DNA of 64,000 bases, from assembly GCA_024655885.1 (NCBI GenBank), contig JANLFN010000005.1:11660-75659 (forward strand), read 5' to 3'. The position numbers and the translations under genes were made by a program. Under the pieces are notes generated by a model. The model saw only the letters and a list, made by a program, of their open reading frames with translations, was not told the origin of the DNA and searched no databases. Positions 42,127 to 58,584 of this stretch are shown here, piece after piece; the first letter of the stretch is position 1, and every line of letters begins with the position of its first letter. The DNA is from Eubacteriales bacterium. GTDB taxonomy: Bacteria > Bacillota > Clostridia > Acetivibrionales > JANLFN01.

Positions 42127-44757
42127 ATGCCGAAGTATGTTTATATGTTCAATGAAGGAAATGCTTCAATGAGGAACCTTCTCGGCGGCAAAGGTGCCAA
42201 TCTGGCGGAGATGACAGGCTTGGGTCTGCCTGTCCCGAGGGGCTTCACGGTGACCACCGAAGCTTGTACGAGGTATTACAACGATGGAAAGGTTATCGCA
42301 AAAGAGATTGAAGATGAGATTTATCAAATGCTGGCAAAAACGGAACAAATCGTAGGAAAAAAATTCGGTGATCCCAATAATCCCTTCCTTGTTTCGGTCC
42401 GTTCGGGCGCCAGGGCTTCCATGCCGGGCATGATGGACACCATATTGAACCTGGGCTTAAACGATGAAGTGGTAGAAGGGCTGGCAAAGCTCACCGCCAA
42501 TGAGAGATTCGCTTACGACAGCTACAGAAGGTTTATACAGATGTTTAGCGATGTGGTTATGGAGGTGGAAAAACAGAAATTTGAAAAGATTCTGGATGAC
42601 ATTAAGGCAGAAAACGGCGCCCAGTATGACACCGACCTGACAGCCGCTAATTTAAAGGAAGTAGTAAAGAGATTTAAAGAGCTGTATAAAAAGGAAAAAG
42701 GGTCTGATTTCCCGCAGGACCCGAGGATTCAATTGATGGAAGCGGTAAAAGCCGTTTTCCGTTCATGGGATAACCCAAGGGCCATCGTCTACAGGAGGTT
42801 GAACGATATTCCCGGAGACTGGGGTACAGCGGTAAACGTTCAGGAAATGGTGTACGGAAATATGGGAAACGATTCAGGCACCGGTGTTGCGTTTACCCGA
42901 GATCCGTCCACCGGTGAAAAAAAGCTGTACGGCGAGTTTCTTATGAACGCCCAGGGAGAGGATGTGGTGGCGGGTATAAGGACGCCTCAGACCCTGGACC
43001 AGCTGAAGGAAATCAATCCTGATGTATACAACCAGTTTGCAAAAATTGCGGAGACCCTTGAAAAGCACTACAAGGACATGCAGGACATGGAGTTTACCAT
43101 AGAAAAAGGCAAGCTTTTCATGCTTCAGACGAGAAATGGCAAAAGGACTGCTGCGGCAGCTTTGAAGATAGCGGTGGACCTTGTTAACGAAGGCATGGCC
43201 ACCAAGGCGGAAGCTGTATTGAAGGTAGATCCAAAGCAGCTGGATGCTCTGCTGCATCCCAACTTTGACCCCAAGGCCTTGAAGGCGGCCACTCCTATTG
43301 CCAAGGGCCTGCCGGCGTCTCCGGGGGCTGCCACAGGCAAGGTCTATTTCTATGCGGATGATGCGGTTGAAGCCTCAAAAGGCGGAGAGAAAAACATCAT
43401 CCTTGTAAGGCTGGAAACTTCACCGGAGGACATTGAAGGCATGCATGTCTCCAAGGGAATACTGACAGGGCGAGGCGGCATGACCTCCCATGCGGCTGTT
43501 GTTGCGCGCGGCATGGGTACCTGCTGTGTGGCAGGATGCAGTGAGATCAAGATCAACGAAGAGGAAAAGTATTTTATAGATAAAAACGGAAAGAAGTACG
43601 TTGAAGGGGACTGGATTTCTCTTGACGGTTCTACCGGAAACGTATACGGTGAAAAATTGCCCACGGTGGAGCCCGAAATGACCGGGGATTTTGCGACGCT
43701 GATGGGGTGGGCGGATGAGCTCAGGACTTTGAAGGTAAGAGCCAATGCCGATTCTCCCAAGGATGCCGCCCAGGCAATCAAATTCGGTGCCGAAGGAATA
43801 GGCCTTTGCCGTACCGAGCACATGTTCTTCGAAGCCGACAGGATCCCTGCCATGAGGGAGATGATCGTCGCAAGGACGGAAGAACAGAGAAGGAAAGCCC
43901 TGGATAAGCTTCTCCCCATGCAGAGGAGCGACTTTGAAGGCCTGTTTATGGAGATGAAGGGCTATCCTGTGACCATCCGGCTCCTTGACCCTCCGCTCCA
44001 TGAATTCCTGCCCCAGGAAGATGCCGATATAGCCGCTCTTGCAAAGGAAATGGGCATAACCTTTGAAGAGCTGAAGGGCGTGGTTGCAGAGCTGCATGAG
44101 TTCAACCCCATGATGGGACACAGGGGATGCCGCCTTGCGGTCACTTATCCGGAGATAGCCGAAATGCAGACAAGGGCTGTTATAGAAGCGGCCATCAATG
44201 TGAATAAAAAGGGAATGCAGGTCATCCCGGAAATCATGATTCCCCTGGTAGGAGAAGTAAAAGAGTTGAAGTATGTAAAGAATATCGTTGTAAAGACGGC
44301 GGATGAAATAATAAAAAATGCGGGAGTCAATCTGGAATACAAGGTCGGAACCATGATAGAGATACCGAGGGCTGCTCTGACGGCAGATGAAATTGCCAGG
44401 GAAGCGGAGTTCTTCTCCTTTGGTACCAATGACCTCACCCAGATGACCTTCGGCTTCAGCCGCGACGATGCAGGGAAATTCCTGGATGCATACTATAATA
44501 AAAAAATATACGAAAACGACCCCTTTGCAAAACTGGACCAGACCGGTGTGGGCAAGCTTGTAGAGATGTCCGCCAAACTGGGCAGGCAGACCAGGCCGGA
44601 TTTGAAGCTGGGCATCTGCGGGGAGCACGGAGGCGACCCCTCCTCCATTGAATTCTGCCATAATGTGGGCTTGAACTATGTTTCCTGCTCACCCTTCAGG
44701 GTTCCTATTGCAAGGCTGGCTGCCGCGCATGCCCAGGTAAAGAATCCAAGACCATAA
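42127..44757 (+). CDS. ppdK: pyruvate, phosphate dikinase
   Basis: 876 aa. ATP-grasp N-terminus (GGKGANLAEM), phosphohistidine swivel GGMTSHAAVVARGMG, and the PEP-utilising C-terminus GICGEHGGDP. Confidence 0.97.
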   Translation: MPKYVYMFNEGNASMRNLLGGKGANLAEMTGLGLPVPRGFTVTTEACTRYYNDGKVIAKEIEDEIYQMLAKTEQIVGKKFGDPNNPFLVSVRSGARASMPGMMDTILNLGLNDEVVEGLAKLTANERFAYDSYRRFIQMFSDVVMEVEKQKFEKILDDIKAENGAQYDTDLTAANLKEVVKRFKELYKKEKGSDFPQDPRIQLMEAVKAVFRSWDNPRAIVYRRLNDIPGDWGTAVNVQEMVYGNMGNDSGTGVAFTRDPSTGEKKLYGEFLMNAQGEDVVAGIRTPQTLDQLKEINPDVYNQFAKIAETLEKHYKDMQDMEFTIEKGKLFMLQTRNGKRTAAAALKIAVDLVNEGMATKAEAVLKVDPKQLDALLHPNFDPKALKAATPIAKGLPASPGAATGKVYFYADDAVEASKGGEKNIILVRLETSPEDIEGMHVSKGILTGRGGMTSHAAVVARGMGTCCVAGCSEIKINEEEKYFIDKNGKKYVEGDWISLDGSTGNVYGEKLPTVEPEMTGDFATLMGWADELRTLKVRANADSPKDAAQAIKFGAEGIGLCRTEHMFFEADRIPAMREMIVARTEEQRRKALDKLLPMQRSDFEGLFMEMKGYPVTIRLLDPPLHEFLPQEDADIAALAKEMGITFEELKGVVAELHEFNPMMGHRGCRLAVTYPEIAEMQTRAVIEAAINVNKKGMQVIPEIMIPLVGEVKELKYVKNIVVKTADEIIKNAGVNLEYKVGTMIEIPRAALTADEIAREAEFFSFGTNDLTQMTFGFSRDDAGKFLDAYYNKKIYENDPFAKLDQTGVGKLVEMSAKLGRQTRPDLKLGICGEHGGDPSSIEFCHNVGLNYVSCSPFRVPIARLAAAHAQVKNPRP

Positions 44758-44890: not shown

Positions 44891-44923
44891 ATTTAAATTT
44901 TGGCTCTGTTAAAAAAGATGTTG

Positions 44924-46786
44924 AACATGGAATCGGAAAGTGACCTTTAAAAATAGAGCATATCTTTAGACATAGCAGGCCTTTCCGGCAATAAAAAACG
45001 TAAATATTTTTACAAAAAAAACAGGACACTTGGCTCCTCTTGTCAAATGGTTAAAGTAACCAAAAAACAACAACCATGAGAGGAAGTGTCCCAGCACTAT
45101 GGTAGCACAAAACCACCCCCAAATGCCAGAACAAAATACAAAAACAACCAGAAAAGAACGCAGGTTAGAAATTTTACGCGAACGGAAACGCATCAAAAAA
45201 GCTATGAGGAAAATGCGTACCGTTACCTTCGACAATGACTCCGTTACCGAAGCCGGCAACTTCCAGTTTATTGAGGTTTTTAAAGAGCTTATTGATCTTG
45301 AGGGAATCCTTAAGAATGGCTTTTTCCTGGAACGGAGAGAAAATACCTTGTATGACGCCCAGGAGCTTATCGATTATCTTATTGACTGTGCAATTCTGGG
45401 TCATACCCGGTTCTCTCATATGGATGCTCTAAAGTTTGATCCGGGATATTTAACGGTCAAGGAGATAGGCCGTTTTCCGGATGAAAGCACCTTCCGTAGT
45501 TTCCTCGAGAAATTGGAGTGGAAGCATCTGATTCAATTAATCGCCATCAACAAAGAGCTTTTGCACCGCAAAGCAAGTATGGAAGAAAAACGTTTGGTCT
45601 GGATCGACATTGACGATACGGTTATTACCTTATTTGGTGAGCAAGAAGGCGCAGTTAATGGCTATAACCCACGCTATCACGGCAGGCCTTCTTACAAAGC
45701 ACGAGTTGCCTTTATCGCCGGGACCGGCGAACTGCTCCATATGGAATTGAATCCGGGAAATACCCACGGTATGAAAGATTTTCTCTCTTTTGTCAAAGAA
45801 GTTGAGGCGATGCTGCCGCCACAATACATTATTGAAGGAATTCGGGCCGACTGCGGCTTTGCCGACCCGGAGGTAATGAATTACGCTGAAGAGAACGGTT
45901 GGTCCTATATCTTCAAATTACCCAAGAAAGCTACCGTGAAGAAAGCCATTTCTTATCTTCAGCAGCATCCTAGCTTTTGGGAGACGCTGGCTGAAAAAGA
46001 AGAAGAAATCCGGTTTGCTACGGAAGATGACCGCTGGGCAGCCGCGGATATTCCCATTATGCTGGACAAGTGGACAAAAGCCCGCCGCTGCGTCATCTAC
46101 CGGGAAGCCCATGAAACAGAACAAACCAACAAAGACCAATTAACCATGATGCTCACCACTTATTCATTTCAGGCGGTCATTACCAATACGGAACTGAAAC
46201 CATTGCCTCTTTTGCGCACCTACAACCAGAGGGCCAATATCGAGAATCGCATTGACGAAATCAAAGAAGGATATACCCTGGAACAAAACAGTATGCACTC
46301 GATGATGACCAACCTGTTATTTAGCTGGATCAAAGTAATTGCTTATAATGTGGTTGTTTGGTTCAAGCAGGCATTTCTCCCGGAATCACTGCAAAAATGT
46401 GAAGTGAAAACGATTCGCCGGGGGGTACTGAAAGTACCTGGAAATATAGTAGGCAATGGCCGCTACCAGCATATCCGGTTGGCTGCTTCGCCGGCATTGG
46501 AGATCATCGTGAAGGTAATACTGCAAAAAGCCAAGGAATTTGCTAAGCGAATGACACCCAAAATACCAATGACGGAAGCTGCTTAATCAGGGAGACAAGT
46601 TAAATAGCAGACAAATAAATCTCGCAAAGAGATGTTTGTTAGAGTTACCCTGAAAAGAGGAGGCTTTGGAAATGCTTTTAAGGTTCATGTCGACAAGTGC
46701 GGCTGGATAAGCCAAAATCGTCGTTTTTTAACGATTATAAGTTATCCACAGGTCCTAAGTTATCCACATTCCGATTTCATGTTTAA
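44924..46786 (+). mobile_element. IS1380-family insertion sequence, full length (boundaries +/-3 bp)
   Basis: Left end AACATGGAATCGGAAAGTG matches the reverse complement of the right end, AACATGAAATCGGAATGTG (17/19). A possible 4-bp direct repeat GTTG occurs at 44920-44923 and 46787-46790. The first 599 bp are repeated identically at 54212-54810. Confidence 0.8.
45099..46586 (+). CDS. IS1380 family DDE transposase
   Basis: 495 aa. N-terminal region ...ILGHTRFSHMDALKFDPGY...PDESTFRSFLEKL, then IDIDDTVITLFGEQEGA and RADCGFADPEVMNY as DDE segments. Family assigned by pattern recognition. Confidence 0.8.
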   Translation: MVAQNHPQMPEQNTKTTRKERRLEILRERKRIKKAMRKMRTVTFDNDSVTEAGNFQFIEVFKELIDLEGILKNGFFLERRENTLYDAQELIDYLIDCAILGHTRFSHMDALKFDPGYLTVKEIGRFPDESTFRSFLEKLEWKHLIQLIAINKELLHRKASMEEKRLVWIDIDDTVITLFGEQEGAVNGYNPRYHGRPSYKARVAFIAGTGELLHMELNPGNTHGMKDFLSFVKEVEAMLPPQYIIEGIRADCGFADPEVMNYAEENGWSYIFKLPKKATVKKAISYLQQHPSFWETLAEKEEEIRFATEDDRWAAADIPIMLDKWTKARRCVIYREAHETEQTNKDQLTMMLTTYSFQAVITNTELKPLPLLRTYNQRANIENRIDEIKEGYTLEQNSMHSMMTNLLFSWIKVIAYNVVVWFKQAFLPESLQKCEVKTIRRGVLKVPGNIVGNGRYQHIRLAASPALEIIVKVILQKAKEFAKRMTPKIPMTEAA

Positions 46787-46930: not shown

Positions 46931-48145
46931 GTGAAAGAGAAAAACCCCAATGCTTTAATTGCAATGATCGCTGTTGTAGCTGTAGCCATTTTGAATCAAT
47001 CATCCGGTGTCGAATCCCCGGCTCTCGCTTACATTGCGAAGTCATTCCCGGAAACGCCGATGACGACTATCGTCATGATAACCACACTTCCGTCGCTGAT
47101 GATTATTCCCGCCTCGCTTTTGTTTAGCGCGTTTCGAAAAAGGTTTACACTACGCTCCTTATTTGTCGTCTTTATGCTTATTCTTATTGTTGGCGGCGTG
47201 ATGCCCGCTTTTTCGCCAACTATCGGCCAGATTCTGTTTTGGAGAGCCCTTTTTGGATTTGGCGTGGGTATTATGTGGCCGCTGGGTTACACTTATATCG
47301 TAGAACTTTACAGTGGGAATAAACAGGATACACTATTGGGCTTTAACAGTACGGTAACTGCGGTAGGCGGTATCATGTGGGCGATGTTAGGCGGCATTTT
47401 GGCTTTAACCAGCTGGCGGCATTCTTTTTATGCCTACTTTATTCCGATTATTATCCTGATATTTTGTACTATTTTTCTGCCTGAACCTAAGAAGACTGAA
47501 ACGGAAACAAAGTCAGCGCAGGGTGATGGCGCCAAAGCGCGGATCGGCTACTTTGTTTTGCTGTTGGTCTTTGGTTTCTTTCTGAATGCCTGCGTCTTTA
47601 CTTATTTTACCAACTTATCTTTCAAAATTGTCGACGGTGGGCTCGGTACTTCGGCCTCTGCCGGTTTGGCGCAGTCCTGTTGGGTTATTGGCAGTTTAAT
47701 TGTCGGTGTTCTTTACGGATTTATCATGCGGAATAAGTTTATGAAGAAATACGCTTATTCCATCGGCTGGCTTCTGGTAGGGATTGGGATGCTGTTTGTA
47801 AGCAAGGCTCCGACCTATACTGTCGTTTTAGTTGCCAGCTTTATAGGCGGAATTGGCTGCGGCACCGCCATTCCTACTATTGTCGGTATGATTGGGAATG
47901 TGAGCAGTAAGAATGTGGCTATGTTCTTAGGCTTATACACAACAATGACCGGTGTGGCGCAATTTGTCGGGCCACAAGTGTTTAATGGCTTAGTTAAGAC
48001 ATTTAACCAGTCTTACGGGAGCTTTCCGATGGCCGTCGCTGCAGTAATTCACATTATCGGTGCAATTATCAGTTTCATTATCTTTGTCGCGCTTTATTCG
48101 AAGCAAAAGGCTGCCGGGGTCCAGAATAGTGCTGTTTCCAAATAA
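46931..48145 (+). CDS. MFS transporter, unknown substrate
   Basis: 404 aa, about 12 predicted TM helices, with a central hydrophilic loop (PEPKKTETETKSAQGDG). GGGAGG SD 8 nt before GTG 46931. Confidence 0.8.
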   Translation: MKEKNPNALIAMIAVVAVAILNQSSGVESPALAYIAKSFPETPMTTIVMITTLPSLMIIPASLLFSAFRKRFTLRSLFVVFMLILIVGGVMPAFSPTIGQILFWRALFGFGVGIMWPLGYTYIVELYSGNKQDTLLGFNSTVTAVGGIMWAMLGGILALTSWRHSFYAYFIPIIILIFCTIFLPEPKKTETETKSAQGDGAKARIGYFVLLLVFGFFLNACVFTYFTNLSFKIVDGGLGTSASAGLAQSCWVIGSLIVGVLYGFIMRNKFMKKYAYSIGWLLVGIGMLFVSKAPTYTVVLVASFIGGIGCGTAIPTIVGMIGNVSSKNVAMFLGLYTTMTGVAQFVGPQVFNGLVKTFNQSYGSFPMAVAAVIHIIGAIISFIIFVALYSKQKAAGVQNSAVSK

Positions 48146-48195
48146 GAATAGCTGATCGATACTTTGTGTTCTGAACAAACAGAAAAATTTTGAAA

Positions 48196-48235
48196 ATATC
48201 TATAACTACTAAGCAAGCTTAGTAGTTATAGATAT
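48196..48235. terminator. 18-bp perfect AT-rich hairpin after the MFS gene (terminator-like)
   Basis: ATATCTATAACTACTAAG (48196-48213), CAAG loop, CTTAGTAGTTATAGATAT (48218-48235). No clean U-tract follows. Confidence 0.4.
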
Positions 48236-48321
48236 TGTAACTATTCAGCATCTATAGCAAAATAGGCATAGCCAAAAACGAGACGTGTAATGTTCTGCTG
48301 ATCCTTGAAATTAGAATAGTG

Positions 48322-48636
48322 CTACTGGGCATCATCCGTAAACAAAGGTTTACCAGATACTGCCGCATAAATTGATTCAAACATGGATATGCCTTGCTTT
48401 GAAACATTGGAAATGTTGTTGCGGACGTTACAAAAAGCGGTAGCAGCACCCCCACGTTTTGCATGGGTTTCCACATAGGTGAAACGTTGTACATCTACCA
48501 CCCGGCGGGTTTTGTATCCTGTAACCACATTCTGAGAAATATCTGAACCACAATGGCTGCAGTGATTAAACTTATGCTCAATTAGCACATCCGGTTTTTT
48601 GCTAATTCTTAAGGTATTGCCCTTATGTCTTGTTCG
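48322..48636 (-). pseudogene. IS66-family transposase (TnpC) internal fragment
   Basis: The open frame without a proper start reads RTRHKGNTLRISKKPDVLIEHKFNHCSHCGSDISQNVVTGYKTRRVVDVQRFTYVETH. This fits the IS66 pattern GHxGxTL...H...CxxCG...Y..RQVxDxP...VTEH. Similarity decays downstream. Confidence 0.5.
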
Positions 48637-49190
48637 TCAGTTAGTTTTCATACTATCACCGGAAATTAAGATGCATTATTTTTAGTATACATGTAATCTC
48701 AAAACTGAAACGCCGGTATTTCAACAATCAAATTCTGAATACACGCTGGATACTTCGGCTGGAACACTGATTACAATCAATAAAAATGCTGTAAATACCC
48801 AGGCCGATATGGCGGCCTATCGATTGTTTGATTTTAACAGCCGAGCTATGAGCGGCTGTCAGATCGAAATGGTGTTAGGAACCCAGCCGATCCTTTAAGA
48901 GTTGCTCAAACAGGGGAAGTCTGTCCTGGATACGGAACTCATGCTTTCTACACACTGCAAGTGAAGTTTTTTGTTTTTGCCGTCTTTCCTGAAAGTTAAT
49001 CATAACTTTATTTTTAATTTTTAGCCAAGAAGAAAGCCGCCTAGATTGGACAGAGTCTGGTTCTCACTTAATACTAGCGCGCCCTCTCAAAAATAGGTAT
49101 AATTATTTTAGAGAGTATAAACTGTGTTACCCAAGAAGCGTATACTCCCTAACATTAATGGCGTGTTCCCCAATTAAAGGGAGGTTTAGG

Positions 49191-50738
49191 ATGAAGATTA
49201 ATTTACACATTATTTTTGATGAGCTAAAGTCTTCTGAAGCCAGGATCATCGCCCGAGAAGATTTCGATTATGTAATTGCCGACGTTAGATATCTACCTAA
49301 GGATTATACAAAATTATCAGAGCACTATGTTTATTTCGCAGATGGTTTGTCCCTTCAGGAAATACGGTCATGTGGGAAGAAGCTCCAGTTTGTTTTATTC
49401 GGTAAGGCTGATGAGTCGCTTCTTGCTGTTAATAACTGGAGCGCTATTCTAGTGCCTGAAACAGACAGAAATATTATATTTGAAGAAGTGCAGCAAATTT
49501 TTGAAAAATATAATCAATGGGAGGATGAAGTATTTTTAGCTATCGCCAATGGCGACTCAGCTCAACAGGTTTTTGAAATTTGTGCTCGCATTTTACGTAA
49601 CCCTATTGCGCTTTTTGACTTATCTGGGATACTCATATTTAAAGCCGGGGATTTGCCGGAAGACCTTAAAAATACGTCATGGGAAGACGTAATGCGTAAA
49701 GGCTACGCACCAGGAGATAAATATTCCCCAAGCGAGCAAAAAGAGGTTTTTAAGCTTATTCAAAGTCATAAAAAACCGTTTGTTTATCAAAGCTATGAGA
49801 CTTTTGGTGAACAAAAGGAGGTAATGACAACCCTGTCAAAAGACGGGATACCCTTTGCTTATTTAGGCTCTACCGATATTTTGGCCCCTTTTACTTTTGG
49901 ACAGCTGGCCATTATTCATTATGTACAAAGAATCATGGAAATGGTCCTCAAAAAAGATTACGCATCGTATCTGGCCGGACACAGAGATATAACCCTTTTC
50001 ATCGAAAGGATTATCCGCGGGCAAGAAATTGATAAGCATACTCTGGCTTATTACCTGAAAAAGATGAAGTGGCAGCTTAAGGACAACTTTTGTTTGCTTT
50101 TTTTCTATAAATCAGATGATTCACCAGTAGAAAAAATGTTCATGAATATATGCAGCAACACAATTAAGGACTTGCTTGGAGATGCTTTGTTATTGTTATA
50201 TGATGATGGGATTTGGGCTATTTTACATAATGATGCAGATTGGCTAAAAGACGAAGTCAATTTTCATAACTTAACATTATATCTGGAAAGGACCGATATG
50301 TTCTGTGCGGTCAGTATTTCTTTTTATGATTTTTTGTATATTAAACATGCCTATAATCAATGCAGGATTGTGCGTGCTTCGGTGAAAGAAAAGAGCAGCC
50401 CTAGAATTTGCCGGTATGAAACAGTATACATGCAGGACATCCTCGATTCGCTTTCTACTTTCTATGACATTTATAGCCTTTGCCATCCCCAAATACTTTA
50501 TATTTATAACAATTGGATCAATGGCAAAGAATATATCAAAAGTTTGCAAATCTATTTGATTAATGGCCGAAATATCACTTCGGCAGCAAATATGCTGCAC
50601 ATTCACCGGAATACTTTAATTTATCGTCTGGACAGGATGAAGGAAGAGCTGAACCTTGACTTTACAGAAATCGATGAACGTACTCTTCTGATACTTTACT
50701 TATCATGCTTGATCGCTAAATATTTGGATGAAGAATAA
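49191..50738 (+). CDS. PucR-family transcriptional regulator
   Basis: The C-terminal PucR HTH reads NITSAANMLHIHRNTLIYRLDRMKEEL. The long N-terminal putative sensor region is uncharacterised. GGGAGG SD before ATG 49191. Confidence 0.8.
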   Translation: MKINLHIIFDELKSSEARIIAREDFDYVIADVRYLPKDYTKLSEHYVYFADGLSLQEIRSCGKKLQFVLFGKADESLLAVNNWSAILVPETDRNIIFEEVQQIFEKYNQWEDEVFLAIANGDSAQQVFEICARILRNPIALFDLSGILIFKAGDLPEDLKNTSWEDVMRKGYAPGDKYSPSEQKEVFKLIQSHKKPFVYQSYETFGEQKEVMTTLSKDGIPFAYLGSTDILAPFTFGQLAIIHYVQRIMEMVLKKDYASYLAGHRDITLFIERIIRGQEIDKHTLAYYLKKMKWQLKDNFCLLFFYKSDDSPVEKMFMNICSNTIKDLLGDALLLLYDDGIWAILHNDADWLKDEVNFHNLTLYLERTDMFCAVSISFYDFLYIKHAYNQCRIVRASVKEKSSPRICRYETVYMQDILDSLSTFYDIYSLCHPQILYIYNNWINGKEYIKSLQIYLINGRNITSAANMLHIHRNTLIYRLDRMKEELNLDFTEIDERTLLILYLSCLIAKYLDEE

Positions 50739-50877
50739 ATGAGCAGATTTCCAATATTACTGGTTTAGTCAAATTACATGAAAAAACAAAATTATATTTT
50801 CAGAAATTGCACATTCCCTGAAAGGTACCTCTGGGATACAATCAAATTATCAATATAATATCTTGGAGGTGCTGATA

Positions 50878-52233
50878 ATGACAAAACTTTACGAGCAAAA
50901 TGGATTCGTAACACCGTTTCCGTACCAACAATTTGTGCATTCCCCATATGTTCCCTATTATCCGGAGGACATAATTTATAGTACAGGGAGTGGGCGTCCA
51001 TTTATCGTTCCATATGAGTATACCGGCTGGAGAGATGAGCAATTGTCTTGGAAAAAGACAGCTTATCTGCATGGAAATCTAAATCCATCCCCTTTGTTCC
51101 GTTTCTCAGGTCCGGATGCGAAAAAATTCTTGAGCAAATATTTAGTAAATACTTTTGAAAAATTTCCTATAGGCAGCGGCAAACATGCCATTGCCTGCAG
51201 CGAAAGAGGTTATATTGCTTCTGACGGAGTCATACTCCGTACGGACGAAGATGTTTATGAAACATACTATATGTACAGTCTGAGCATGGCATTAGAGAAC
51301 GATCTTGAAAAATATGACATGGCTTTTGAGGATCTTACTCCCGGGGCGTTCCTCTTCCAGCTTGGTGGCCCGTTGAGCTTGCAGATACTGGAAGCAGCAA
51401 CAGGTGATGATCTGCATGATATCAAATTTATGCGTTTTCGTGAGACAAGCATCAATGGGAAAAAAATCCGGGCCGTGAGGCTAGGTATGGCCGGAAGCCT
51501 TGCCTACGAGCTCCACGGGAAACTTGAGGATGCCCATGAAATCTATGATGCGATCTATCAGGCAGGTAAACCCTTCGGTATCCGCCGTCTCGGCTGGCAT
51601 GCATATATGATGAACCATACGGAAAACGGCTTTCCGCAATGGGGATATCATTTTGATCTTGACATGCCCTTCCTTATGAACGCTGCGAAAATATTGGGCA
51701 GCGGCGGCGACGAAACCGGTCTGCGCAATCCATTTGAACTGGGATGGGGTTTTGTGGTGAAATTCGACCATGACTTTATAGGCCGCGAGGCGCTGGGAAA
51801 AATTGCAGCCAATCCGGTCCGTACCACAGTTAGTCTGGAATGGAACGCCGAGGATATTGCCGATGTTTATAAATCCCTCTTTGAAGACGGGGAGCCCTAT
51901 AAAGAATTTGAGCAGGTTAATGATTTTACACAATTCAAAGATGGAAAAATCGTCCGTTACCAAGATAAAGTTCTGGACAAAAAAGGAAATGCCATTGGCC
52001 TCAGCACAGGCCGTGCCTACAGCGTGTATTATCAGCGGATGATTTCGCAATGTCAGATCGACCTTGCCTATGCCAAAGAAGGCACCGATGTCATTGTTTT
52101 ATGGGGGGAACCCGGCACACGGCAGAAAGAAATTCGGGCAAAGGTTGCACGGTTCCCGTATTATAATGAAAACGACAACAGAACATTCGATGTTGAAACA
52201 GTCCCGCGTGTAAATCAAAAAGCAAGATTATAG
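50878..52233 (+). CDS. aminomethyltransferase (GcvT) fold protein, LigM/DesA-like putative tetrahydrofolate-dependent demethylase, paralog 1
   Basis: 451 aa, longer than GcvT. Motifs: YTGWRDEQLSWKKTAYL, RLGMAGSLAYELHG, GWGFVVKFDHDFIGREAL and VSLEWNAEDIADVY. GGAGGTG SD before ATG 50878. Confidence 0.7.
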   Translation: MTKLYEQNGFVTPFPYQQFVHSPYVPYYPEDIIYSTGSGRPFIVPYEYTGWRDEQLSWKKTAYLHGNLNPSPLFRFSGPDAKKFLSKYLVNTFEKFPIGSGKHAIACSERGYIASDGVILRTDEDVYETYYMYSLSMALENDLEKYDMAFEDLTPGAFLFQLGGPLSLQILEAATGDDLHDIKFMRFRETSINGKKIRAVRLGMAGSLAYELHGKLEDAHEIYDAIYQAGKPFGIRRLGWHAYMMNHTENGFPQWGYHFDLDMPFLMNAAKILGSGGDETGLRNPFELGWGFVVKFDHDFIGREALGKIAANPVRTTVSLEWNAEDIADVYKSLFEDGEPYKEFEQVNDFTQFKDGKIVRYQDKVLDKKGNAIGLSTGRAYSVYYQRMISQCQIDLAYAKEGTDVIVLWGEPGTRQKEIRAKVARFPYYNENDNRTFDVETVPRVNQKARL

Positions 52234-52323
52234 GAAAGCTTACTATTTTATTGATCATTGTTATCTAACATTTAAAAAGGTGCTGTCTAAAAGTAAAATA
52301 CTGTAAAAGAGGTCGGTAAAACG

Positions 52324-53664
52324 ATGATTGAAAAAGCGATTTATAATGACGCCTTTACGTTGCTCAAATTTGGAATGGACTATTATCCTCAGGAATATAC
52401 CGGTTATCAAGATGAAATCCTGGCCGGTAAAACAACTGCCTGGATTGGCTCAAGCCTGATGATTTCCCCAATTTATGATGTCAAAGGACCGGATGCGCTT
52501 AAATTTTTCAATTCGATCTGTGTAAACGACTTTTCAACTCTGAAGGATAAAGGAATCCGCCACGCTGTCATTTGTAATGAAAAAGGTCAGATCATGACGG
52601 ACGGTGTCGTGTTCAAAGTTGCGGAAGACACCTACCGTACCTATTGGCTGCTTCCTGTCATTGATTATTTGCTTCAAAAAAGCGGAATGAACGTAGAAGG
52701 CATTAACATGACCGGAAAAGAATATTTTTATCAGATTGCCGGGCCAAAATCTTTGGAGATTCTGGAAAAAGCCTGCGAATGTGATTTGCATGATATTAAA
52801 TTCGCGACCCATCGCCTGACAAAAATCTGCGGTCAGGATATGCGGGTTGTTCGGTTAGGTATGGCCGGCAATCTGGCTTATGAAGTTCATGGACCTATCG
52901 AAGATGCAGATTTAGTCTATAACAAACTTTGGGAAGCAGGCCAGGCATTTGGTGCCAGGAAACTGGGGATGATTGCTTATCAAATGAATCATACCGAAGG
53001 GGGATTTGCCAATATTAATATGCATTATCCGCTGCCCTGGTACGAAGATCCGGGACTTGCTGAGTATTTAGCACCTATTCCCTTTGCAGGTGCTGCCAAT
53101 CTGAACCGTTTATTGCTTGGCAGTGTTGGCGATGAGCTTGAATGCCGCTTTGTGACACCGTATGATGTTGGCTGGGGATTTCTGGTGAAATTCAATCATG
53201 AATTTATTGGCAGAAAGGCCCTGGAGGAAATTGCTAAAAACCCACCTAGAACTGTCGTTACGCTCGAATGGAACGCAGATGATGTTGCTGAAATCTATGC
53301 TTCCCAGTTCCGGGGCAAGGATATTCAACCTTACGAAAGAATAGATGCCATGCCTCATGATTATAACCTCAACTTCGGTTCGACAGGTGGACGGCCTGTT
53401 TACCGTGCGGACAAGGTCCTGGCAGACGGCAAGATGATCGGGATCAGCTCCGGACGTACAAACAGCTACTATTACAATACGACGATTTCCCTGGCCTTTA
53501 TTGATCCGAAGTATGCAGTGGAGGGCAAGGAACTTACCTTGATCTGGGGAACACCGGGTACTCGGCAGAAGGAAGTTCGCGTCAAAGTTGCCCGTTTCCC
53601 GTATAACGATTTGGTGCGCAATGAAAACACGGATGTGGAAACGATTCCGCACTACAAAGGATAA
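52324..53664 (+). CDS. aminomethyltransferase (GcvT) fold protein, LigM/DesA-like putative tetrahydrofolate-dependent demethylase, paralog 2
   Basis: 446 aa, collinear with paralog 1. Motifs: YTGYQDEILAGKTTAWI, RLGMAGNLAYEVHG, GWGFLVKFNHEFIGRKAL and VTLEWNADDVAEIY. Confidence 0.7.
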   Translation: MIEKAIYNDAFTLLKFGMDYYPQEYTGYQDEILAGKTTAWIGSSLMISPIYDVKGPDALKFFNSICVNDFSTLKDKGIRHAVICNEKGQIMTDGVVFKVAEDTYRTYWLLPVIDYLLQKSGMNVEGINMTGKEYFYQIAGPKSLEILEKACECDLHDIKFATHRLTKICGQDMRVVRLGMAGNLAYEVHGPIEDADLVYNKLWEAGQAFGARKLGMIAYQMNHTEGGFANINMHYPLPWYEDPGLAEYLAPIPFAGAANLNRLLLGSVGDELECRFVTPYDVGWGFLVKFNHEFIGRKALEEIAKNPPRTVVTLEWNADDVAEIYASQFRGKDIQPYERIDAMPHDYNLNFGSTGGRPVYRADKVLADGKMIGISSGRTNSYYYNTTISLAFIDPKYAVEGKELTLIWGTPGTRQKEVRVKVARFPYNDLVRNENTDVETIPHYKG

Positions 53665-53754
53665 AACGAAATAGTGGCTCTTTTGTCAAATGTTGAGGTA
53701 AGCCCGAAAACGGAGAGTAAATAAATCTATTCTTTAGAAGGGCTAAATTTCTAG

Positions 53755-53784
53755 AGATGTCTTACTTGAGGCATCTTTTATTTT
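53755..53784 (+). terminator. intrinsic terminator after the demethylase pair
   Basis: AGATGTCTT pairs with GAGGCATCT (9 bp including G-U pairs), followed by TTTTATTTT. Confidence 0.6.
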
Positions 53785-53935: not shown

Positions 53936-54211
53936 TCAGTACGATATTTTTGGGATTAATAAGCATAAAGCATCAAGGGCCATACGGAAAAAATCATCTT
54001 CACGAAAAGGCTCGATATGGTCATAATCATTTTTCCCTTGGCATAATAACCCCAGATAAGATGTGACAACGTCTCCGTTCTTAATGTCCGGAACCGATTT
54101 AATTTTGGGAAGACTGATTTCGTTGAAACGTTGCTTTATCTTTGTTTTTGATAACAGTAATCCTATTAGTCCTAAGCCTGGATGCGTTATAAGTGTTTCA
54201 TCAGAATTTTC
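53936..54211 (-). pseudogene. IS1380/IS4-superfamily transposase N-terminal fragment, cut by the IS1380 copy at 54212
   Basis: The minus-strand frame reads ENSDETLITHPGLGLIGLLLSKTK...DIKNGDVVTSYLGLLCQGKNDYDHIEPFREDDFFRMALDA. It has no start codon, because it abuts the IS end, and stops prematurely. Confidence 0.4.
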
Positions 54212-54810
54212 AACATGGAATCGGAAAGTGACCTTTAAAAATAGAGCATATCTTTAGACATAGCAGGCCTTTCCGGCAATAAAAAACGTAAATATTTTTA
54301 CAAAAAAAACAGGACACTTGGCTCCTCTTGTCAAATGGTTAAAGTAACCAAAAAACAACAACCATGAGAGGAAGTGTCCCAGCACTATGGTAGCACAAAA
54401 CCACCCCCAAATGCCAGAACAAAATACAAAAACAACCAGAAAAGAACGCAGGTTAGAAATTTTACGCGAACGGAAACGCATCAAAAAAGCTATGAGGAAA
54501 ATGCGTACCGTTACCTTCGACAATGACTCCGTTACCGAAGCCGGCAACTTCCAGTTTATTGAGGTTTTTAAAGAGCTTATTGATCTTGAGGGAATCCTTA
54601 AGAATGGCTTTTTCCTGGAACGGAGAGAAAATACCTTGTATGACGCCCAGGAGCTTATCGATTATCTTATTGACTGTGCAATTCTGGGTCATACCCGGTT
54701 CTCTCATATGGATGCTCTAAAGTTTGATCCGGGATATTTAACGGTCAAGGAGATAGGCCGTTTTCCGGATGAAAGCACCTTCCGTAGTTTCCTCGAGAAA
54801 TTGGAGTGGA
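54212..54810 (+). repeat. truncated second copy of the IS1380-family element (5' 599 bp, identical to 44924-45522)
   Basis: Base-for-base identity with the full copy at an offset of 9288. Identity stops at 54810, where a different element end begins. The remaining transposase ORF (54387-54872) keeps only the first 141 codons. Confidence 0.95.
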
Positions 54811-55186
54811 TGTTTTTGTCAAGTGAAAATTCCCCAATATTTCAATCGAAATATCCCCCAGCGAAAATTTAAAGGTTATTATCTTCCATCCACTTAACAG
54901 TTTCCTTAAGCCTGTAAGAGTTTCCATTCATGTTAACCATGTAAGACTTATGGGTAAGCCTGTCTGTCATGGCGGCTGTCATGATAGGGTCCTGGAATAT
55001 TTCATCCCACCTTTCAAATGATAGATTCGTAGTAATAATAGTTGACTTTCTGCCTGCCCGCAGGGAAAGATTTGTAAACTGTTGTTTCCAACGATATTCT
55101 GCAGTGACATTCTCGAATTAAACTGCATTGAAAATTTCCAATTAAGACCTTGGGACTCTGTCCCAAACCCTGGGATTTATCGCTTT
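54811..55186 (-). mobile_element. IS21-family remnant: terminal repeat region plus istB 3' fragment
   Basis: The end begins TGTTTTTGTCAAGTGAAAATTCCCC and carries three GAAA(A/T)(A/T)T-type repeats at 54823-54870, followed by the IstB C-terminal coding remnant. Confidence 0.5.
54869..55117 (-). pseudogene. IstB-like (IS21 helper ATPase) C-terminal fragment
   Basis: The minus-strand frame reads ...RAGRKSTIITTNLSFERWDEIFQDPIMTAAMTDRLTHKSYMVNMNGNSYRLKETVKWMEDNNL-stop. This is a typical IstB C-terminus. There is no Walker region or start. Confidence 0.6.
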
Positions 55187-55287: not shown

Positions 55288-55626
55288 CTATCCTCCGGTC
55301 AGGTAAGAGCCTGTAAAATCCACCTTGTCGGCAATAGCCTTCAGAGCATACGCTACAGTGATTCCATCAACCTTCCCCAAGGCCTTTGTTAACCTTTCCT
55401 TGTTCCAGAATATATCGCCCAGGTCACTCAAGTGGCAGCCAGCGTCATAGTCGGGTATGCAAGCAAAATTTCCACTGGTTGAACGTCCAATAATAACCCT
55501 GATGGATGAGCGGCTCATTATCTGAAATTCATAGTGACTGCCATAGTTTTTCATATAGGTTATGCTTGCGGGCCATCTTTCACACCTGTTTTGAGTTTTC
55601 CAGACACATTCAAACACCGTATGCAT
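55288..55626 (-). CDS. hypothetical protein (112 aa), last gene of the transposon operon
   Basis: GAGGAGG SD 5 nt before the ATG at 55626 (MHTVFECVWK...), 10 nt after the ATPase stop. I recognise no motif. Confidence 0.55.
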   Translation of the reverse strand: MHTVFECVWKTQNRCERWPASITYMKNYGSHYEFQIMSRSSIRVIIGRSTSGNFACIPDYDAGCHLSDLGDIFWNKERLTKALGKVDGITVAYALKAIADKVDFTGSYLTGG

Positions 55627-55636
55627 TGCTTCCTCC

Positions 55637-56437
55637 TCAATTTTCAAGCTCTGTCTTTATGATTCTTTTAACCACAATATCATCTACGAGTTTTGTCTTA
55701 TTCATAAAGCAGTGAAGAAGGCTTTTGTCGCATATCAGGTTGATTTTCCTGGGAATCCCGGCACTAAAGCAGTGAATCTCTTTTATTGCCTCTGATGTAA
55801 AAAGTTCGCTTGAAGAGCCTGCTGCCTTTATATGAGTTCTTATGTAGTCTTCAACGCTTTGCAGGTCAAGTTCCTTGAGAGAATAACGTATGGTTATCCT
55901 TTGAGATATTGCACGCATTGAATATCCGGATAGCAATTCGGAAAGCTCCGGCTGACCCACAAGGATAAGGCATAACGGTGAAAGGCTGTCCATGTTGAAA
56001 TTGACGAGGAATCTGACTTCCTCAAGCATCTTCTCTGTCAGCAGATGGGCTTCGTCTATAATGATTATTGGCGTTTTGCCATGCTGGTACATATCCATCA
56101 CAGCCTTGTTAACCATCCGTTTTGCCTCCGGCTTGAAGTATGAAGGCGAAATGTCGAGCTGTTCAAGGATTTCGTTATAAAAGGATTTGGGTGACATATC
56201 CGACTGGGATATGTATATCACCTTGTGGCTTACCGGATTTATCTCATCCACGACAGCCCTTATGGCAGTGCTCTTGCCAATACCAACTTCCCCGGTCACT
56301 GCGGCAAAAAGCCTGTTGTCTATGGCATATTTAAGCCTGCTCTTCAATTCCTGGAAGTCTTCGTAAAGGTATAGCTTTTTTACATCTATATCCCTCTTAA
56401 AGGGTGTTTTGGTGAATCCGAAATATTCTTCATACAT
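55637..56437 (-). CDS. AAA+ ATPase, TniB/ExeA-like transposition helper
   Basis: Walker A GEVGIGKST and Walker B IIIIDEAHLL. AAGGAGG SD 9 nt before the ATG at 56437. Overlaps the transposase stop. Confidence 0.8.
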   Translation of the reverse strand: MYEEYFGFTKTPFKRDIDVKKLYLYEDFQELKSRLKYAIDNRLFAAVTGEVGIGKSTAIRAVVDEINPVSHKVIYISQSDMSPKSFYNEILEQLDISPSYFKPEAKRMVNKAVMDMYQHGKTPIIIIDEAHLLTEKMLEEVRFLVNFNMDSLSPLCLILVGQPELSELLSGYSMRAISQRITIRYSLKELDLQSVEDYIRTHIKAAGSSSELFTSEAIKEIHCFSAGIPRKINLICDKSLLHCFMNKTKLVDDIVVKRIIKTELEN

Positions 56438-57833
56438 TTTGGGCATCCTCCTTACTGTACAGGCTGGTGAAGTTCAGGCGGTTCGCCTTGTCCTTGAGCC
56501 TGCCCTCGTACTTTTCCTTTAGAAGCTTAAGATAACTGGTTTTCAGCATAGCTTCCTGCGTTGGTGCGGCAGAAGGGTCAACAGGAGCCTCGCTGTCCCA
56601 GACATTATTTCTGATTATTAAAGGTTCTGCATTTTTGTACTGCTGGCCGTTGTAATACACTTCAATATTGGCTGGATCCTTTTTATCAAAGCGCAGTTGC
56701 ACCGTTTTGTTTGCCAGAATCCCTTCAAGCTTGTACAAATTACCCTCAATCGACACTGTAGCAGTTTTATTTGCTTTCCGTTCCACGCGCTGTATAAACA
56801 CATCCCTCAGCTTTTCAGGAGATATGTATTTTACATGGGCTTTGTCAGCCGAATGTATCTCTTCAGGTGTAGCGCCTATGCTGCTGTGCTTCTTGTTGTT
56901 GTAATTTTCGGACAGCCAGTATTCGAAGTACTCATTCAGCTCATCCAGTGTCTCGATTCCAAGCCTTCTTGCCTCAGGCTCGAAGGATCTGTCCACATAG
57001 GAGTTAAATTTTTCCACCTTGCCCTTTGAGGTTGCGGAGTAGGGACGGCAATATTTCATCATGCAGCCCAGCTCTGCGCATATTGCCTGCAGGCGTTTTG
57101 TCCGGTATACCTTAGCGTTGTCTGTGTAGAAAACACGGGGAACCCCCATTTTTACGAGTGCCTTTCTGAAGCAATCCTCAACATTCTGGGCATTCTCCTC
57201 AAAATATAGCTTTCCGCATACCTTTCGGCTACGGTCATCCCGGAAGCAAATCAGATATGTCCTTAGATATTCTTTGGGATTCTTGGGATCCTTCAGGTAT
57301 ATCGAATATTTTATATCCGACTGCCAGGTATCATTGACGTTCTCTTTCTGGAACCTTCGAAAAACTTTTGCCGATTTGGTTTTAGGCGTAGTCTGAATAT
57401 TGTTTGACATTATCCGTGAAAGGGTGGAATTCTTAAGAAGCCCTTCCGGAGCATCTCCTGACAGCTCCAGTATTTCAATAATCTCACGTACGCTGCGTTC
57501 AGGCAGTTCCTCTTTAAGCTCAAAGGCTTTTTTCACAGTCGCCTCCGGTATAACCCTGACACTGCCGGCATCCTTTCTTTCATCCGGCACCAGTGCGGAA
57601 AATCCGCCTTCACGATACCACTTAAGGTATGTGAATAATGTCCGTTCCGATACTGTTGTCCTGCTGCTGTTGGGGATATCATACGTTTTTGATAATATCT
57701 GCCTTATTAAAGCCGCTTTTTCCCCTTTGGGCAGTCCTTCCTGCAGCAGCGGGTGTATCAACCCGTACCGGAACAGCCCGATTTCCATTTTTTCTTCTTC
57801 AGTCATGTTTTCTTCATCCTCCTTACGGTGCAT
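56430..57833 (-). CDS. DDE (rve) transposase with Mu-transposase-like C-terminal domain (TniA/TnsB-like)
   Basis: DDE triad candidates are WQSD, FYTDNAKVY and SKGKVEKFNSY. The N-terminal GLFRYGLIHPLL HTH region and the C-terminal TVSIEGNLYKL beta-barrel-like segment are also present. The start may be M1 (57833) or M10 (57806). Confidence 0.8.
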   Translation of the reverse strand: MHRKEDEENMTEEEKMEIGLFRYGLIHPLLQEGLPKGEKAALIRQILSKTYDIPNSSRTTVSERTLFTYLKWYREGGFSALVPDERKDAGSVRVIPEATVKKAFELKEELPERSVREIIEILELSGDAPEGLLKNSTLSRIMSNNIQTTPKTKSAKVFRRFQKENVNDTWQSDIKYSIYLKDPKNPKEYLRTYLICFRDDRSRKVCGKLYFEENAQNVEDCFRKALVKMGVPRVFYTDNAKVYRTKRLQAICAELGCMMKYCRPYSATSKGKVEKFNSYVDRSFEPEARRLGIETLDELNEYFEYWLSENYNNKKHSSIGATPEEIHSADKAHVKYISPEKLRDVFIQRVERKANKTATVSIEGNLYKLEGILANKTVQLRFDKKDPANIEVYYNGQQYKNAEPLIIRNNVWDSEAPVDPSAAPTQEAMLKTSYLKLLKEKYEGRLKDKANRLNFTSLYSKEDAQNV

Positions 57834-57921
57834 TTTTTGTTGATGTCATGATTTTATCTGCACCACAGAAGGTTTTGGTTTAAAACTATGGGAAAATCAG
57901 CCGGTATTTTAATTTGAGAAA

Positions 57922-58584
57922 TTACAAGAACACATGGGCGGTCAGTATATCCAGTATCCTGTTTATGTAAATGAAGGGTCGTATATTGAGGTCAGATATT
58001 TTATTATCCCTGAATGCGGCTGTAGTCCTTATATATATCCGGCTCCAGTTGATAATTTTTGTTACATCTTTCGAGTATTCCTTATTTCTGATCCATGAAG
58101 GAATAGCTTCTGCCTCCGGCAGCAGCTCGGAGCTTATATCGCAGGATGGCGAATATTCCTGTATTTCTTTTGTTATCAATGGTTCTATGACGGCTTTCTT
58201 TGTTGTGACAACCCGTACCCAGTAGTACATGACCGTGTGGGAAACCGGCAGGGAAGGAAACAGCTTGCAACACAGCCGCCTTAGGCTTATTGGGCCTTTT
58301 GAAATGTCATTATATTGCAGGATATATTTTTGCCTTTGAAAGGTGTCATATTGATGCCGGGATGCTAAAAATTCGGGTTTTAATGCATGTGTTACATTGC
58401 ACTTTTTGCATTTGTAGCGAAGAATTATTATTTTTGTTATTATTTCATTGGATTTGTAGGTAACCTCATAACAGGCGTGGTAAACCATCAGCGCACCACA
58501 GGTGCTACAGTGTATCTCTATATTTATTGTGAAAATTATTCTCTTGTAGGCATTGACATCGCCGCAAAAATCTAATAATCTCAA
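57922..58584 (-). CDS. zinc-ribbon protein (DUF6431-like), first gene of the transposon
   Basis: HCSTCG ... YKCKKCNVTHALKPEFL gives two CxxC pairs. TTG start with no clear SD, so the start is uncertain. Confidence 0.5.
   Translation of the reverse strand: MRLLDFCGDVNAYKRIIFTINIEIHCSTCGALMVYHACYEVTYKSNEIITKIIILRYKCKKCNVTHALKPEFLASRHQYDTFQRQKYILQYNDISKGPISLRRLCCKLFPSLPVSHTVMYYWVRVVTTKKAVIEPLITKEIQEYSPSCDISSELLPEAEAIPSWIRNKEYSKDVTKIINWSRIYIRTTAAFRDNKISDLNIRPFIYINRILDILTAHVFL

Follow-up and report, generated by a model that had tools for sequence, protein, structure and literature searches.

A four-gene block with two folate-binding enzymes

The window analysed here, the whole 64,000-nucleotide stretch of contig JANLFN010000005.1 (positions 11,660 to 75,659, forward strand) of the Clostridia genome assembly GCA_024655885.1, contains at positions 46931 to 53664 a compact block for which a folate-dependent demethylation role had been suggested. 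The original prediction listed its contents as an MFS transporter, a PucR-type regulator and two adjacent paralogs of the aminomethyltransferase (GcvT) fold, which we refer to as enzymes A and B. We located all four genes on the plus strand, exactly where they had been placed. The block and the features within it are as follows:

46931-48145, plus strand: MFS transporter of 404 residues, MFS_1 family
48146-49157, no strand assigned: spacer of 1 kb, no convincing gene
49158-50738, plus strand: PucR-family sensor-regulator of 526 residues, with an HTH_30 domain
50878-52233, plus strand: enzyme A, 451 residues, with a GCV_T domain
52324-53664, plus strand: enzyme B, 446 residues, with a GCV_T domain
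53753-53778, plus strand: terminator-like hairpin 3' of the enzyme B gene, an 11-bp stem followed by a T run

Enzyme A most likely begins at the ATG at 50878, which lies 7 nt after a GGAGGTG ribosome-binding site, with the TTG at 50863 as an alternative start; enzyme B is read from the ATG at 52324. These starts give the lengths of 451 and 446 residues that had been predicted. The two genes are co-directional and separated by 90 nt, and their products share 45% identity over 425 residues. Both contain the Pfam GCV_T folate-binding domain (E 5.5e-36 for A and 1.5e-34 for B), and both are about 70-85 residues longer than the bona fide GcvT proteins of other genomes (366-383 residues), close to the excess of about 80 residues originally noted; the four sequence motifs quoted at that time all align within A. 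The best solved structure for either enzyme is LigM (5tl4), with full-length alignments (E 7e-44 for A and 3e-41 for B). An AlphaFold2 model of B (predicted local distance difference test score, pLDDT, 80.4) also had LigM as its top fold match, with a template-modelling (TM) score of 0.72-0.74 over about 445 columns. The LigM-type three-domain fold and its conserved active-site tyrosine are present in both enzymes, the tyrosine aligning with HAYMMNHTE in A and IAYQMNHTE in B. Neither feature discriminates among the candidate relatives, because both are shared with SesA, a methylene transferase considered below.

The GCV_T domain raises the question of whether A and B are divergent T proteins of the glycine cleavage system whose partners are encoded elsewhere, and many database entries do name homologs "glycine cleavage system aminomethyltransferase T". 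Against this, the gcvT equivalog model TIGR00528 gave 55.1 bits for A and 51.2 for B, far below its cut-off of 235.85. The best-scoring curated models were instead DesA (201-208 bits) and LigM (187-204 bits), compared with 51-82 bits for GcvT and 40-50 for DmdA. Four GcvT proteins that pass the cut-off formed an outgroup apart from A and B with support of 100/100, and the identity of A and B to GcvT is 22%. The 64-kb window contains no gcvH, gcvP or lpd gene, as had been observed before. In the host genome (3.44 Mb in 65 contigs, 100% complete), a search with PF01597, which addressed GcvH and not GcvP or Lpd, returned a best match of 20.6 bits, below the cut-off of 22.2. No true GcvT was found in this genome, where the sole carriers of the GCV_T domain are A, B, a pair of full-length paralogs on contigs C55 and C9, and a fragment on contig C57; a protein search with B also finds a short remnant on contig C14. 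In a control genome, that of Acetobacterium wieringae, a true GcvT (381 bits) is encoded in addition to members of the A/B family. As far as sequence analysis reaches, the glycine-cleavage explanation is refuted, and we assign it a negligible probability. The data instead support the view that A and B are stand-alone tetrahydrofolate (THF)-type one-carbon (C1) transferases of the aryl-ether branch, neither GcvT nor DmdA, which upholds the original prediction on this point.

Placement of A and B beside SesA and BrdA

The original prediction had likened both enzymes to the aryl O-demethylases LigM and DesA. This resemblance stands insofar as LigM is the best solved structure and LigM and DesA are the best curated models, but it does not extend to membership in either family. 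The NCBIfam equivalog cut-offs are 580 bits for LigM (NF047885) and 800 bits for DesA (NF047633); A scored 203.7 and 207.8 bits with these two models and B 187.1 and 201.4, the match running over the full length of B and over two stretches of A. A SesA-like control scored much the same (188 and 182 bits), and we therefore attribute the "LigM/DesA" label on A and B to a model library that holds no SesA model. SesA itself, identified by database search (P0131, "Sesamin methylene transferase", Sinomonas sp. No.22), is the nearer relative of both enzymes: its identity is 54% with B, across 443 residues (E 8e-176), and 43% with A, across 427 residues (E 3e-107). The identity of A and B to LigM and DesA orthologs that exceed the curated cut-offs is 28-32%; these membership references comprised three LigM orthologs of Arthrobacter sp. 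CAU 1506 (839-922 bits) and one DesA ortholog from a Sphingomonadaceae genome (863 bits).

A phylogeny likewise placed the enzymes outside the group that the original prediction had favoured. We built trees of about 70 family members from 80 genome loci under LG+G4, rooted on the four true GcvT proteins. One clade (100/99) united LigM and DesA with related proteins of aerobic Proteobacteria and Acidobacteria; the above-cut-off LigM orthologs L081 and L088 and DesA ortholog L066 lie inside it. A, B, the two host paralogs and all anaerobe homologs fell into the sister clade (99/96), together with actinobacterial and sphingomonad proteins, SesA and BrdA-like proteins. Forcing A and B together with LigM and DesA cost 816 log-likelihood units (approximately unbiased test, p 1e-70), a very wide margin, although this group was named after the tree had been seen. 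B grouped with an Arthrobacter SesA-like protein (97/93) that is 68% identical to SesA, and when SesA was added to the tree, it and B shared a 17-row clade with a Shimodaira-Hasegawa-like approximate likelihood-ratio (SH-aLRT) support of 99. A was placed deeper in the same clan, with a Paratissierella protein as its nearest relative (59% identity). A BrdA2-like gene (L117) and a Sphingomonas Leaf20 gene (L028) shared a 40-row clade (100/99) with A and B, and A is about 38-41% identical to BrdA2-like stand-ins. In a comparison made by eye, the printed alignment of SesA and BrdA (PMC5547118 supplement) was very close to B and A respectively, and the N-terminal region of A resembled that of the printed BrdA1 and BrdA2 of strain BD3100. 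In the published division, SesA and BrdA make up one clan and DesA, LigM and DmdA another (PMC5547118).

Judged by these alignments and trees, A and B belong to the SesA/BrdA clan, the sister group of LigM/DesA, and B is a member of the SesA subfamily. The assignment entails a correction of annotation, as many homologs bear the label "glycine cleavage T protein" or "vanillate O-demethylase". Two further observations concern the reference genomes. Arthrobacter sp. CAU 1506 carries, besides its three above-cut-off LigM orthologs, the gene for the SesA-like protein and a BrdA-type gene (L081, L086, L088, L115 and L120), and the two clans therefore coexist in a single organism. The BrdA2-like gene L117, from a Micrococcaceae genome (G025:C1:137263-138507), has an in-frame stop near its 5' end and is either a pseudogene or affected by a sequencing error.

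SesA and BrdA are described as THF-dependent enzymes that open the methylenedioxy rings of sesamin and berberine (PMC5547118). For SesA, the account in PMC5547118 proposes R81, H82, R100, R179 and H225 as proton donors and D95, E189 and Y221 as THF ligands. In B the equivalents of these eight residues are R79, H80, K98, R177 and H223, and D93, E187 and Y219; in A the same positions, in the same order, hold K, H, R, R and H, and D, E and Y. Seven of the eight are thus identical to SesA in each enzyme, and the eighth is a conservative exchange between arginine and lysine. The sister clade as a whole showed the SesA pattern with identical spacing, B being offset by two residues. LigM and DesA have glutamine at the position of H82, threonine at that of H225 and tryptophan or phenylalanine at that of H189 of B. 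Common to B and LigM/DesA are E31, D57, D93, Q137, R177, E187, Y219, E225 and H292 (B numbering), while the two differ at H80, H189, H223, H234 and W284 of B. The tyrosine described as the methyl-transferring residue of LigM (PMC9296663) is conserved in every clade member of the clan to which A and B belong.

Regulator, transporter, host context and origin of the block

The C-terminal HTH_30 domain of the regulator scored 56.9 bits (cut-off 27, E 1.7e-15), and Pfam names no domain in residues 1-450, which agrees with the long sensor region described in the original prediction. Pfam GGDEF_2 was found in the PucR paralogs on contig C9 of the host, but not in the window regulator. In an AlphaFold2 model (pLDDT 83.7), a small alpha/beta domain at the N terminus is followed by a GAF-like domain, predicted to bind a ligand, then by a GGDEF-like domain and finally by HTH_30; its fold matches are to the PucR-type regulators Rv2242 and BAD_0249 and to the CodY GAF domain. 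On the strength of this model and its fold matches, the regulator appears to be built like a small-molecule-sensing activator. The transporter belongs to MFS_1 (E 5e-33), with weak, sub-threshold matches to the aromatic-acid:H+ symporter and efflux subfamilies; we presume that it imports the substrate. The spacer that follows its gene contains a 29-nt near-perfect inverted repeat (48186-48245) directly after the MFS stop codon, and no open reading frame (ORF) within the spacer had a significant family match; a doubtful 88-residue ORF on the minus strand has a CxxC motif and insignificant zinc-ribbon matches. No terminator-like hairpin lies between the regulator, A and B, and the one 3' of B likely marks the end of a transcription unit.

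We clustered the neighbours of 24 enzyme loci from anaerobes. In 17 of them, a PucR homolog of 510-530 residues stands directly beside the enzyme gene, mostly in divergent orientation. Other recurring neighbours are MFS transporters, an NmrA-like reductase, LysR regulators, an OYE/FadH-type flavoenzyme and short-chain dehydrogenases and, in the Acetobacterium loci, also corrinoid proteins and URO-D methyltransferases. MFS genes flank the enzyme gene in loci L001, L002 and L026 and at the host C9 locus, the window MFS protein being 28% identical to that of L026. The proposal that regulator and transporter belong with the enzymes as one module has therefore held up in these gene neighbourhoods. 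Loci L008 (A. wieringae) and L009 (A. carbinolicum), both taken over positions 1-21300, contain two and three clan genes respectively, interleaved with PucR genes. On the flanks of these genes stand an OYE/FadH flavoenzyme, a methyl-accepting chemotaxis protein and a set comprising a corrinoid protein and a URO-D methyltransferase. In genomes of gut bacteria and acetogens (L006:3422-4384, L007:1747-2565, L003:5133-6077 and L029:7279-8223), the NmrA-like reductase gene adjoins the PucR gene in B-type modules, and in L006 and L007 it lies between regulator and enzyme gene. We considered a lignan reductase of the pinoresinol-lariciresinol type for this neighbour and rejected it, because the best matches of its product among solved structures were triphenylmethane reductase and YtfG rather than PLR, PCBER or IFR. 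Since triphenylmethane reductase-type enzymes reduce cationic or iminium dyes, the neighbour could perhaps hint at alkaloid-type substrates.

The host encodes acetyl-CoA synthase, formate-THF ligase and methylenetetrahydrofolate reductase, so that a C1 unit on THF would have an obvious fate in the Wood-Ljungdahl pathway. Its genome also holds 47 matches to the URO-D methyltransferase family, an unusually large repertoire for corrinoid methyl transfer in a genome of 3.4 Mb, and about 19 PucR-like loci, most of them within a few kilobases of a URO-D gene (for example C57:64768-69806, C41:140629-154498 and C29:41208-49451). This proximity ties the PucR type to methyl or aryl-ether metabolism. At the C9 locus, a third paralog has a textbook gene set as its back-to-back neighbour, made up of genes for a corrinoid protein, two URO-D methyltransferases, an MFS transporter and two PucR regulators. 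Because the window block resembles the host's corrinoid operons, with enzymes predicted to act directly on THF in place of the three-component system, it appears to be a corrinoid-free addition to the host's corrinoid route and not a replacement for it.

The surroundings of the block bear on its origin. The features that flank it are as follows:

42127-44757, plus strand: pyruvate phosphate dikinase, upstream of the left IS1380
44918-46586, plus strand: IS1380-family insertion sequence (IS), left flank; the repeat begins at 44918 and the transposase ORF spans 45099-46586
54206-54810, plus strand: 5' stump of IS1380, 605 bp, right flank, in direct orientation relative to the left copy
55288-58584, minus strand: transposon-like module encoding DUF6618 (119 residues), a TniB/AAA_22-like ATPase (269 residues), an rve-integrase transposase (467 residues) and DUF6431 (220 residues)

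The left transposase scored 319.8 bits with NCBIfam transpos_IS1380 (cut-off 180) and matches Pfam DDE_Tnp_1_4. The right copy is 99.7% identical to positions 44918-45522, and the ORF remaining in it (54387-54872) aligns with the opening 100 positions of the IS1380 profile. The description of the block as IS-bracketed is thus correct for the left element, which is whole, and overstated for the right one, of which only the 5' stump is present. A whole-genome search found no IS1380 copies beyond these two. Since one element is whole and the other a 605-bp stump in the same orientation, the block is at present unlikely to move on its own as a composite transposon. The four-gene module on the minus strand abuts the stump; its rve-integrase transposase has a Mu-transposase C-terminal domain, and the module may have been responsible for truncating the right IS1380.

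The G+C content of the block is 0.39-0.43, compared with 0.45-0.51 in the housekeeping genes upstream, and an enzyme homolog was found in only one of 148 other genomes of the host's order and in none of three in its family. At the DNA level, no match to the block turned up in any of 20 relatives, as expected at such taxonomic distance. Given the IS1380 flanks, the lower G+C content and this rarity among the host's kin, the block looks acquired, as originally proposed. Elsewhere in the host genome, a broken regulator-enzyme pair lies at C57:47025-48960, where a 246-residue PucR piece stands beside a 245-residue enzyme piece, and smaller regulator-enzyme remnants lie at C14:13467-14509. These broken pairs indicate that the regulator-enzyme module has been gained and lost repeatedly. 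A search of public sequencing runs for the window returned no RNA run and a single DNA run, a sludge metagenome with only 8% of the sampled words, which carries no information on habitat or expression.

A putative module for C1 transfer from aryl ethers

Taken together, these data make it probable that the block encodes a module of the SesA/BrdA clan for THF-dependent C1 transfer from aryl ethers. It is most likely an acquired, substrate-inducible, corrinoid-free unit that removes C1 units from plant-derived aryl ethers. We propose that the MFS protein would import a plant aryl ether, and that the PucR-family regulator, having detected this compound or the catechol formed from it with its GAF-like domain, would switch on the operon. 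With THF and an aromatic ether bound, A and B would each transfer the carbon of the ether to THF, setting free a catechol, and the resulting C1-THF would enter the host's Wood-Ljungdahl pathway. Within this scheme we infer the substrate, the choice between methylene and methyl transfer, the direction of transport and the ligand of the regulator. Methylene transfer is favoured because every characterised clan member that we found opens methylenedioxy rings and because the proposed catalytic residues are kept; with SesA as the nearest characterised relative, it may be 5,10-methylene-THF that is formed, and not 5-methyl-THF. By analogy, B may open a benzodioxole ring and transfer methylene to give 5,10-methylene-THF, a proposition that we regard as evenly balanced, and our expectation that A does so too is more tentative, falling somewhat short of that.

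Several points weigh against this interpretation. The literature searched contained no biochemical data on any anaerobe or gut member of the clan. That the clade-specific histidines donate protons is no more than a proposal, which goes back to a homology model that PMC5547118 cites, and the trees rest on LG+G4 only. An identity to SesA of 54% and 43% leaves room for a different substrate and perhaps for a different outcome, methylene or methyl. We know of no sequence marker that separates methylene from methyl chemistry. In Acetobacterium and at the host C9 locus, the family is associated with operons for corrinoid methyltransferases, a setting compatible with plain O-demethylation no less than with ring opening. 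On the side of transport, the MFS subfamily is undefined and the protein may act in efflux, and the 1-kb spacer and hairpin between the MFS gene and the other genes leave its co-regulation with them presumed.

The main alternative is that A and B are O-demethylases of the LigM/DesA type, which would move the methyl group of a methoxy-aromatic compound such as a vanillate- or syringate-like one to THF and yield 5-methyl-THF. In its favour, DesA and LigM are the best curated models, the LigM fold and methyl-transfer tyrosine (PMC9296663) are kept in every clade member, the family adjoins corrinoid methyltransferase genes in Acetobacterium and at the host C9 locus, and the host, with its 47 URO-D matches, is plainly specialised for methyl harvesting. 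The scores of 187-208 bits nevertheless lie far below the cut-offs of 580 and 800, A and B fall outside the LigM/DesA clade, and the characterised members found in their own clan, SesA and BrdA, all cleave methylenedioxy rings (PMC5547118). In addition, the need for a second demethylation route is less obvious in a host that has corrinoid methyltransferase genes by the dozen. We consider this alternative unlikely, though it deserves to be taken seriously. Demethylation of a non-aromatic donor such as dimethylsulfoniopropionate (DMSP), a methylamine, a betaine or sarcosine, by a reaction like that of DmdA or of the folate domains of DMGDH, SoxA or Tdm, is very improbable. The shared GCV_T folate-binding domain and weak matches to trimethylamine N-oxide (TMAO) demethylase, SoxA and DmdA models (40-96 bits) speak for it, yet these matches span the folate domain only and are 2-5 times below the LigM and DesA scores, the full-length relatives are all aryl-ether enzymes, and the block has no flavoprotein oxidase or dehydrogenase partner. 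The methylamine and sulfonium substrates named in the original prediction thus found no support.

The original prediction also left room for a heteromer. The genes for A and B are adjacent and co-directional, with a gap of 90 nt and one shared regulator, an arrangement that would suit an obligate heteromer acting on one substrate. In other genomes, however, the nearest relatives of A (L027, L009 and L020) and those of B (L001-L007 and L029) do not form pairs with one another. B-type genes mostly stand alone with a regulator, sometimes plus an MFS gene, and in clusters of several enzyme genes a separate PucR gene usually accompanies each of them. Both the lack of a conserved pair and this tendency towards one regulator per enzyme gene favour two substrates: A and B most likely act on different ones, and we regard the heteromer as quite improbable.

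The enzymes themselves are members of a known family; in the literature searched, the large anaerobe branch of this family, its partnership with PucR regulators and its place beside corrinoid systems have not been described. The THF-dependent methylenedioxy-opening enzymes in the literature we reached come only from a handful of aerobic soil isolates, and the harvesting of ether C1 units by anaerobes is credited there to corrinoid systems. We saw the clan in Acetobacterium, Dehalobacter, Dehalococcoidia, Coriobacteriia and gut Clostridia such as Wansuia, Lagierella and Merdimonas. It is conceivable, although on balance doubtful, that this anaerobe radiation constitutes a corrinoid-independent "demethylenase" of anoxic habitats. 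If so, organisms with the Wood-Ljungdahl pathway would harvest methylenedioxy carbon directly as methylene-THF, through a one-enzyme, B12-free entry to that pathway. The same reaction would be the first step in the gut conversion of sesamin-type lignans, berberine-type alkaloids and other benzodioxoles to catechols, and the genes would be candidates for the gut conversion of dietary or drug benzodioxoles (sesamin, berberine and related compounds). The PucR/GAF regulator and its enzyme would also offer a ready-made sensor-enzyme pair for biocatalysis or biosensing.

Among known systems, the closest is SesA of Sinomonas sp. no. 22, which cleaves a methylenedioxy bridge in a THF-dependent manner to yield a catechol and 5,10-methylene-THF (Kumano et al. 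2016, as reported in PMC5547118 and PMC9560768). It belongs to the same length class (452 residues, compared with 446 for B and 451 for A), and it shares with both enzymes an end-to-end alignment, a clade and seven of the eight proposed residues. SesA comes from an aerobic actinobacterium, whereas A and B are encoded in a strict-anaerobe-type member of the Clostridia with the Wood-Ljungdahl pathway. Unlike SesA, they come as tandem paralogs with a PucR sensor-regulator and an MFS protein in an IS-flanked block, and the activity assigned to them is a predicted one. The BrdA enzymes, the berberine demethylenases of Sphingobium sp. BD3100, Rhodococcus sp. and CJ1 (PMC5547118), belong to the same clan of THF-dependent methylenedioxy-opening enzymes as A and B. 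The tyrosine retained in A and B is absent from one of the BrdA types; the comparison of BrdA with A is partly visual, its identity values having been measured on the BrdA2-like stand-ins. LigM and DesA of Sphingobium sp. SYK-6 (PDB 5tl4 and 5x1i), THF-dependent O-demethylases of vanillate/3-O-methylgallate and of syringate, have the same three-domain fold and cofactor-binding core as B and carry out the general reaction predicted for A and B, transfer of an aryl-ether carbon to THF. They differ in their low identity, in their separate clade and in the curated cut-offs that A and B miss, and they transfer methyl, in aerobes that then cleave the ring.

The corrinoid O-demethylases of acetogens and Desulfitobacterium, composed of methyltransferase I, a corrinoid protein and methyltransferase II (reviewed in PMC13564433), serve the purpose proposed for the block, delivery of ether-bound C1 units to the Wood-Ljungdahl pathway. 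Within the host genome they have the same accessory design, with one or more PucR regulators and an MFS transporter, and they adjoin members of the A/B family at the C9 locus and in Acetobacterium. In contrast to these systems, the window module has, as far as its genes tell, one polypeptide per reaction and no corrinoid protein, activating enzyme or URO-D methyltransferase, and it is predicted to pass the C1 unit straight to THF.

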